From assembly GCF_045037415.1 (NCBI RefSeq), contig NZ_CP173438.1: DNA of 64,000 nucleotides. One strand, 5' to 3'. The stretch comes from Escherichia coli. GTDB taxonomy: Bacteria; Pseudomonadota; Gammaproteobacteria; Enterobacterales; Enterobacteriaceae. A program made the position numbers. Position 1 is the first letter of the stretch. Every line of letters starts with the position of its first letter. Of this stretch, positions 11,101 through 11,870 are shown in pieces.

Positions 11101-11870
11101 TCAGTTCACTGAAAAAAGAGCGCATCAGAAAGCGGATATATAAAACCCGGGACATGGCCCGGGCGGATATCTTCGATTACATTGAAGTGTTCTACAACCG
11201 GACCCGGCGCCACAGTCATCTGGGTGGCGTCAGCCCGGAGGCCTTCGAAAAGGCCTCACCGTGAGGACAGAAACTGTCTACCGGAATGTGGTCACTCCAC
11301 TTGAGTCGTCTTGCTGTACTCCTTTGGCCAATCCATTTAGCTCTCCAACGTGATGTTTTCAACGGTAACAAAAGTAACAATATAACATGCAGTCATTTCA
11401 ACGATCTCAGTGTTACCACCCATTTTGAGCAATCATATCAAAGTAACAAAAGGGGAATATTGTGTGGTTCATCGCTGAAAGCAGGCTAAGATCACCTGCC
11501 GGCTATGCATATCATGAAAGTGCTAAATGTCCCGTCTTGTTTATCAACCGAGATAAGCTGTAATTGACTGAGTGGCTCCCCTTAATGCTTTTTCTCAATC
11601 AACAGATATGGATGGGACCAGTCAGTGACCTCTTTATATGAAAAAAACCCATCGTGCTCCAGTGCGCAAACGCCCTTATGACTGGCAACGTAATCGTAAA
11701 CAGCCCGGCTTTCCAGTCCCTGTAACATGTGCGAAAGCAGCTTTCGGCGCATCACATCTGACTTCCTGCGTTTACTGTCAACAACGGGTAATAAAGTGAT
11801 CCACTAACCGTCACCACCAACGGTTTAATATTGATCCACCTTGTTTACTCAGGATTAGCTTCAGGTATAA

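Follow-up and report, generated by a model that had tools for sequence, protein, structure and literature searches.

What does a short open reading frame (ORF) lodged between two insertion sequence (IS) remnants of an Escherichia coli island represent? An earlier note on the DNA analyzed here, a stretch of 64,000 nucleotides (hereafter the window), had offered two answers for one such minus-strand ORF of 56 codons, namely that it is a bona fide small protein or that a truncated gene begins there. We addressed the question through the position of the ORF, its homology, and the fate of related sequences in other genomes.

Position of the ORF between two IS remnants

We found the ORF at 11582-11752 on the minus strand, as the earlier note had placed it, with exactly the same 56-aa translation, MRRKLLSHMLQGLESRAVYDYVASHKGVCALEHDGFFSYKEVTDWSHPYLLIEKKH. 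Its ATG lies at 11752-11750 and its TAA stop at 11584-11582. A GTG one codon further 5′ (11755-11753) yields a 57-aa version, and an SD-like AGGAAG (11767-11762) lies 6-9 nt 5′ of the GTG/ATG. The frame remains open upstream as far as a TAG at 11806-11804, within the IS terminus. The features of the locus, in window coordinates, are as follows.

6573-7748, plus strand: P4-type tyrosine integrase gene, next to ychF, which defines the island (annotation)
7859-11304, plus strand: ISEc24 (IS3 family) with a group II intron, bounding the remnant downstream (annotation)
11305-11581, no strand: AT-rich segment of ~277 bp between the ORF stop and the IS3 end, confined to ST131-type genomes
11576-11775, minus strand: the whole conserved orphan 3′ block, in which homology starts at the IS end and ends 6 nt past the stop codon
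11582-11752, minus strand: the 56-codon ORF and its stop, equivalent to codons 439-494 of an ancestral ~495-aa type-A gene
11753-11775, minus strand: 23 nt of ancestral frame 5′ of the ORF ATG (…KRRKSDV), the same as in the OW1E2, Klebsiella, and MB06233 alleles
11776-11886, minus strand: right-hand terminus, without coding sequence, of an element of the IS21 family (IS100kyp-like); its last bases, …GTTGACA, reach 11776
11887-12255, minus strand: pseudogene fragment of IstB, the IS21 helper ATPase (ORF translation and SA186 annotation)
18066-19463, minus strand: type C, a complete distant paralogue of 465 aa, in a recombinase-HTH-…-polymerase-like module 6.3 kb upstream of the ORF

The annotated neighborhood of an identical genome, E. 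coli SA186, confirmed that the ORF lies between IS3 and IS21 remnants, as the earlier note had it, with the IS3-family ISEc24 on one side and the IstB fragment on the other. The order in SA186 is ychF, the P4-type integrase, ISEc24 split by the group II intron, and an unannotated gap that holds the ORF, followed by the IstB pseudogene (IS21 family), an IS91 fragment, small hypothetical genes, a frameshifted DUF3999 gene, a DUF2339 gene, and a transposase fragment.

The upstream neighbor has both hallmarks of the IS21 family, a gene for the IstB helper ATPase and a terminus ending in …CA. PGAP describes the IstB fragment in SA186 as “ATP-binding protein; internal stop; missing N-terminus,” and thousands of E. 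coli istB-distal ends of the IS100kyp/ISSen3 type align to the window from 11860 through ~11774-11776 at ~84% identity. The last six bases of the terminus (11776-11781, minus strand) read outward as TTGACA, a perfect −35 hexamer. IS21 ends supply the −35 element of hybrid promoters; a promoter scan near the ORF found no matching −10 element downstream of this TTGACA. Two imperfect direct repeats of ~25 nt that we had read by eye in the terminus were not reproduced by a repeat tool and were dropped.

On the downstream side, ISEc24 is represented by transposase fragments at 7859-8544 and 10806-11264, and the intron gene ltrA occupies 9217-10725. In CP054248.1 the locus is otherwise identical and the IS3 transposase genes are uninterrupted, indicating that the group II intron entered ISEc24 later. 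This record is deposited as “plasmid pBone4_5” of 542 kb, yet it includes pth, ychF, and the chromosomal island, and probably represents a piece of the chromosome or an assembly error, not a plasmid. The AT-rich segment at 11305-11581 is unrelated to the sequence that follows the block in other genomes, and outside ST131-type genomes its only relative was part of a Klebsiella plasmid, unannotated there, that matches at 80%. The ~40 bases next to it (11265-11304) have matches elsewhere and probably form the end of the IS3.

The ORF segment is near-unchanged in ~512 complete E. coli genomes, including strains labeled O25b:H4-ST131, JJ2434, and 81009, and RefSeq/PGAP annotates nothing there. In GenBank, the exact ORF has been deposited as a “hypothetical protein” on >1000 contigs (AGY87267.1, which is P423_06780 in JJ1886; BAI54715.1), and shortened variants of 40-48 aa have been deposited from >100 E. 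coli contigs. We counted 272 six-frame ORFs of ≥56 aa in the window, against 302 ± 11 in composition-matched first-order Markov simulations; the length of the ORF alone carries no significance.

Homology to a ~495-aa island gene

What lifts the ORF above chance is its homology. The earlier note had named a lack of homologues, together with a lack of expression, as grounds for refutation; a translated homology search returned many homologues. By tblastn, the ORF matched residues 439-494 of a 494-aa protein of strain EC2641 with 86% identity (E = 8e-27); in an HMM search, the 57-aa version matched positions 523-562 of the 629-position profile phrog_30690 (E = 2.9e-5); and 42 relatives were found in the database with the tail as query. 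Pfam and NCBIfam gave no match to the 57-aa peptide. At the DNA level, the EC2641 match (87.6% nt identity) spans exactly the ORF and is the 3′ end of the gene for a “hypothetical protein,” WP_063135805.1 (L002:4688-6172). The alignment starts at the ORF ATG, which is an internal Met codon in EC2641 (…PAQMHRKLLAHML…), runs to a stop at the equivalent position, and extends beyond neither end. The OW1E2 allele additionally matches the 23 nt 5′ of the ATG (…GTAAACGCAGGAAGTCAGATGTG, encoding KRRKSDV), up to base 11775. Over the block as a whole (11775-11576), blastn identities were 93% to Klebsiella (positions 5978-6177 of locus L005), 90% to OW1E2, and 87.6% to EC2641.

Since the reading frame continues upstream into the IS21-family terminus at 11775/11776, the ATG and GTG are internal codons exposed by ORF-finding. 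Judged from these alignments, the ORF is the C-terminal remnant, about the last ninth, of a truncated mobile-element gene of ~495 aa, of which the window has kept codons ~432-494 alone. The earlier suggestion of a truncated gene thus holds in part: the ORF is a piece of one, but the shared stop and the match to residues 439-494 identify it as the 3′ end and not the start. The only other match to this parent gene in the window was the distant type-C paralogue (18096-18860, tblastn).

The full-length parent family comprised 149 matches of ~490-500 aa from Escherichia, Salmonella, Klebsiella, Serratia, Pectobacterium, Pantoea, Providencia, Proteus, Yersinia, and others. It is hypothetical in every source, with no Pfam domain recorded; we found no paper describing it, and PADLOC, run on the parent and its neighbors, returned nothing for the parent. 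The parent matched phrog_30690 significantly (HMM, E = 2.4e-29). In the parent element, its gene closes a core module (small divergent gene, AlpA-type HTH gene, ~365-aa gene, ~495-aa gene), and variable cargo, for example Type I restriction-modification (R-M) systems, lies directly 3′ of it. In a Pfam search of 48 members, MC5, the middle component of ABC-three-component (ABC-3C) conflict systems, matched nine weakly (best E = 0.0016), which may reflect chance or a shared small domain. In Proteus mirabilis, an intact 499-aa family ORF (L009:4681-6180) was left uncalled and its last 59 codons were called as a protein of their own (P0142); gene-calling artefacts of this kind inflate the apparent number of “small proteins.”

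An AlphaFold2 model built from the 48-member alignment (mean pLDDT 89.2) has a palm/fingers fold of the Pol I/T7 type together with an N-terminal winged-helix-like region. In a Foldseek search of the PDB, the top 50 matches were exclusively family-A DNA polymerases and mitochondrial RNA polymerase (best E = 1e-4); in a viral fold library, uncharacterized proteins of Dickeya/Erwinia jumbo phages came first, followed by phage PolA enzymes. D298, K341, and H471-D472-G473 are invariant in the alignment. We take the parent motifs NYDIKSSQLEILRH and ALEHDGF to resemble motifs A and C of Pol I, and D472, which the model places at the turn of a β-hairpin, presumably corresponds to the hairpin turn of “VHDE” in Pol I. 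Sequence comparisons were negative: none of the 48 members matched Pfam DNA_pol_A (PF00476) at E ≤ 10, searches of PDB sequences with the parent as a single sequence and as a profile returned only noise (CheA, kinesin), and hhalign of the family profile against Taq 605-832 gave a probability of 1% (the Taq sequence used was verified to be exact). As sequence and profile searches failed, the link to polymerases is one of predicted fold only. On this model, the parent is a protein with a compact, highly divergent family-A (Pol I/T7-like) polymerase fold and probably serves as the replication protein of its island. We stop short of calling it a family-A polymerase, since the sequence profiles did not place it in that family; the equivalence of the catalytic motifs and the activity are putative.

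Within the model, the ORF corresponds to a helix (436-462), a hairpin (466-470/473-476) with His-Asp-Gly at its turn, and a strand (489-492), a fragment too small to make up a polymerase active site by itself. A 2026 census of bacterial polymerases recognizes only PolA1, PolA1-like, PolA2, and PolA3 among PolA groups (PMC12926913), and the parent family is absent from them.

Also present in the window, on the strand of the ORF, is a complete EC2641-type element, in the order DUF2787, RadC, a tyrosine recombinase (22472-23416), an oppositely oriented gene, an HTH gene, two hypothetical genes, and type C; IS debris, DUF2339/DUF3999, and then the orphan ORF follow. Type C is annotated as a “hypothetical protein,” matches EC2641 residues 241-483 (tblastn E = 8e-14), and is 61% identical to the Budvicia type C. 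RefSeq gives it 381 aa (18066-19211); the ORF reaches a GTG at 19463 and the Budvicia homologue aligns from residue 9, and the annotated start is probably too far downstream. The island further holds, at ~28270-34500 on the minus strand, a retron Ec67-type reverse transcriptase/endonuclease and an ABC-3C system, making it rich in defence genes.

Orphan tails in other genomes and their interpretation

The window is not alone in carrying a type-A tail detached from its gene. In Klebsiella pneumoniae, at the same pth-ychF-integrase site, a type-B paralogue truncated at its 5′ end and complete at its 3′ end is followed after 29 nt by a type-A tail (…QPFNITYKDVAARKRRKSDV-MRRK…; L005:5033-6171). The integrase of this island is 96% identical in amino acid sequence to that of the window, and the orphan block has the same orientation in both. 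In Budvicia (L010/L032), type C and a complete type B precede the tail, which begins 76 nt after type B. In E. coli MB06233 the site is a different one, close to mutS/ygbA; there, a full element whose type B is complete is joined through a Klebsiella-type junction to the tail and a Type I R-M cargo (L036:7984-9670). Klebsiella and MB06233 thus have a junction in common, in which type B ends ~20-30 nt before a type-A tail that starts from Gln419. This junction arose once and then spread, and it now occurs at two chromosomal sites that differ in cargo.

We scanned species-representative genomes once with a profile of the tail and recovered 23 loci, ~15 with full-length type-A genes and five with short remnants. 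The five loci with short remnants were as follows.

L019, Lelliottia sp. V86_10: two blocks 9 kb apart with different cargo after each; His-to-Gln in the invariant motif of one
L030, Providencia rettgeri: next to mutS, frameshifted, with a stop at block codon 2
L032, Budvicia: type C, type B, then the orphan
L033, K. pneumoniae ATCC 13883: cut by an IS3 at residue 451
L034, Serratia sp. DD3: start at residue 396, Met lost

The two Lelliottia tails (L019:6-194 and L019:8914-9189) lie on one strand, one of them preceding a Type I R-M system, and the pair looks like serial accretion of tail-plus-cargo units. Altogether, orphan tails occur in at least six genera and we saw no remnants of intermediate length; those not bounded by an IS all retain just the last ~60-117 codons. 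For these ~5 remnants, a null of uniform breakpoints gave P < 1e-3 in a rough hand calculation that assumes independent events. We rejected a single fixed, site-specific junction as a general rule, as remnant starts range from residue 378 to residue 451. We likewise rejected the idea of cargo with blocks at both ends, as the gene of 56 aa that closes the MB06233/EC2641 cargo on its far side is unrelated.

Comparison of full-length alleles pointed to exchange at this 3′ end. Identity between EC2641 and OW1E2 is ~55-62% in the gene body, jumps to 87-100% at about codon 448 (L002 ~6030), and stays there through the cargo, indicating a crossover within the block and a tail that moves with the cargo. 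MB06233 and Klebsiella are likewise mosaic, with 96.7% identity in the linker and 87.5% in the ORF, where their orphans differ at 21 nt and 4 aa despite the common junction. The window and Klebsiella orphans differ by eight synonymous and four nonsynonymous changes (dN/dS 0.12), a split at least as skewed being expected under neutrality with P ~1e-3 by hand calculation. Across the block, synonymous sites have diverged with dS of 0.27-0.51.

In view of the junction common to Klebsiella and MB06233, we propose that the type-A tail of the window was probably an orphan by the time the IS21-like element arrived, which has since erased the original junction in this lineage. In the ST131 lineage, an IS21-like element would then have cut into the tail, and IS-mediated rearrangements (IS21, IS91, IS30-like, and ISEc24 debris) would have removed the neighbors on both sides. 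The intact frame and mostly synonymous divergence are best explained if the tail descends recently from full-length alleles or has been converted by them, because crossovers demonstrably fall inside the block. Together, the mosaic identity and the internal crossover show recombination of such blocks with full-length alleles, a process that brings in sequence already filtered by selection, with no need for selection on the orphan itself.

How else might the ORF be read? An origin by chance, in the intergenic DNA that separates two IS remnants, would fit its length (~300 such ORFs are expected per 64 kb of window composition) and the want of a Pfam or NCBIfam match, but strong, collinear, same-frame homology to the conserved C-terminus of a family found in many genera refutes it, and we give it practically no credence. 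Nor did the genuine small protein entertained by the earlier note draw positive support: scans around the ORF found neither promoter nor terminator, and the peptide is one helix and a β-hairpin of a larger fold. A tail of 56-76 residues could in principle be translated from its own or IS-supplied signals and have its own function, for example in modulating or mimicking the C-terminus of nearby polymerase-like proteins. Intact ORFs do share the same conserved Met start in many genera, dN/dS is ~0.1 among orphans including two with a common ancestral junction, the SD-like AGGAAG and the outward TTGACA lie upstream, the tail directly follows a paralogue in Klebsiella, Budvicia, and MB06233, and “hypothetical protein” deposits are numerous (>1000 contigs). 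However, the TTGACA lacks a −10 partner, and the peptide amounts to a helix and hairpin cut from a palm/fingers fold of ~250 residues. Starts also differ among remnants, and several orphans are disrupted, by the codon-2 stop in Providencia, the lost Met in Serratia, the IS3 cut at residue 451, altered C-termini (P0130 and P0134), and shortening to 40-48 aa, besides the His-to-Gln change in Lelliottia. The synonymous bias is explained by recombination with full-length alleles, and certain “short proteins” stem from the miscalling of intact genes, the Proteus case being one. We consider a stand-alone small protein very unlikely.

Recurrence in at least six genera with no intermediate lengths is, for its part, unexpected if the tails are debris left by simple random decay. 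Instead, the conserved 3′ block, extended by ~80 nt of downstream sequence in some genomes, might be retained as a cis-acting or recombination module in which the coding frame is incidental, serving as a homology patch for cargo swapping or as an origin or other site recognized by the polymerase-like protein. Consistent with this, the block travels with the downstream cargo and not with the gene body in EC2641 and OW1E2, a type-B core is joined to a type-A tail and Type I R-M cargo in MB06233, a different cargo module follows each Lelliottia block, and remnants without an IS boundary keep only the last ~60-117 codons. Synonymous sites nevertheless diverge freely, leaving nucleotide-level constraint on the block beyond the protein code unsupported. 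Remnant boundaries vary in site, scans around the ORF detected no repeats or structure and no Rfam family, and the window has lost its cargo, ISEc24 lying 277 bp downstream, and thus offers nothing more to exchange. Such a module is highly improbable. More broadly, it is doubtful that the tail is a maintained unit of 56-76 codons (the last helix and the His-Asp-Gly hairpin), whether as a small protein or as a homology “landing pad”; in the latter case, island cores and defence cargos would re-assort through it. Overall, the ORF is a genuine coding sequence, yet ordinary gene debris: very probably the orphaned 3′ end, without function, that is left of a ~495-aa gene from enterobacterial integrative islands.

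Comparison with known systems

Recognizing the ORF as an orphan tail is a routine annotation correction, IS-bounded pseudogene remnants being already known. The “hypothetical protein” ORF of ST131-type genomes should be flagged as a pseudogene remnant and not counted as a small protein. More interesting than the ORF, though only partly established, are an unannotated family with a polymerase fold and the way its tails have been orphaned repeatedly where island core meets cargo. Widespread in islands of the Enterobacterales and in jumbo phages, the family is, on its predicted fold, a candidate unrecognized mobile-element replicase. The last ~60 codons of the parent gene behave as the line where the conserved core of an island gives way to exchangeable cargo (Type I R-M and other defence-like modules), and orphan tails that stay behind when the core is replaced offer a testable handle on island re-assortment.

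Among known proteins, the fold brings the parent closest to family-A polymerases (Pol I Klenow, Taq, T7, Pol θ) and T7-like RNA polymerases, from which it differs in having no detectable sequence-profile similarity to them, a length of only ~495 aa, no exonuclease domain, an N-terminal winged-helix-like region, and its place as a gene of integrative islands. Also close are phrog_30690, which the parent matches by HMM, and uncharacterized proteins of the Dickeya/Erwinia jumbo phages JA29, JA11, JA13, and Yoloswag, its best structural matches in the viral library (TM 0.52-0.57); these are phage-encoded, longer (the 629-position profile), and 18-24% identical to the parent. YfjI of the K-12 prophage CP4-57, encoded by the gene after alpA, has the corresponding place behind an AlpA-type regulator in its integrase-borne island and, at 469 aa, a comparable length. 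It is, however, an unrelated DUF3987 protein, and we rejected it as a family member (hhalign probability 0.5%).

As for the tails, rhs and cdiA toxin genes have displaced “orphan” C-terminal modules downstream. The arrangement in Klebsiella, Budvicia, and MB06233, in which a whole gene is followed by the 3′ end of another allele, is similar, as is recombination in a conserved stretch. The tails differ in belonging to a polymerase-like core gene with no toxin/immunity pair, and re-activation is without evidence here. The ORF itself most resembles the IS-truncated pseudogene remnants of E. coli islands, being an IS-bounded fragment amid IS21, IS91, IS3, and IS30-like debris in a horizontally acquired island. 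It differs from them in being unusually well preserved and in that the same tail has been orphaned in other genera; in at least one lineage, that of Klebsiella and E. coli MB06233, the orphan state was not made by an IS.
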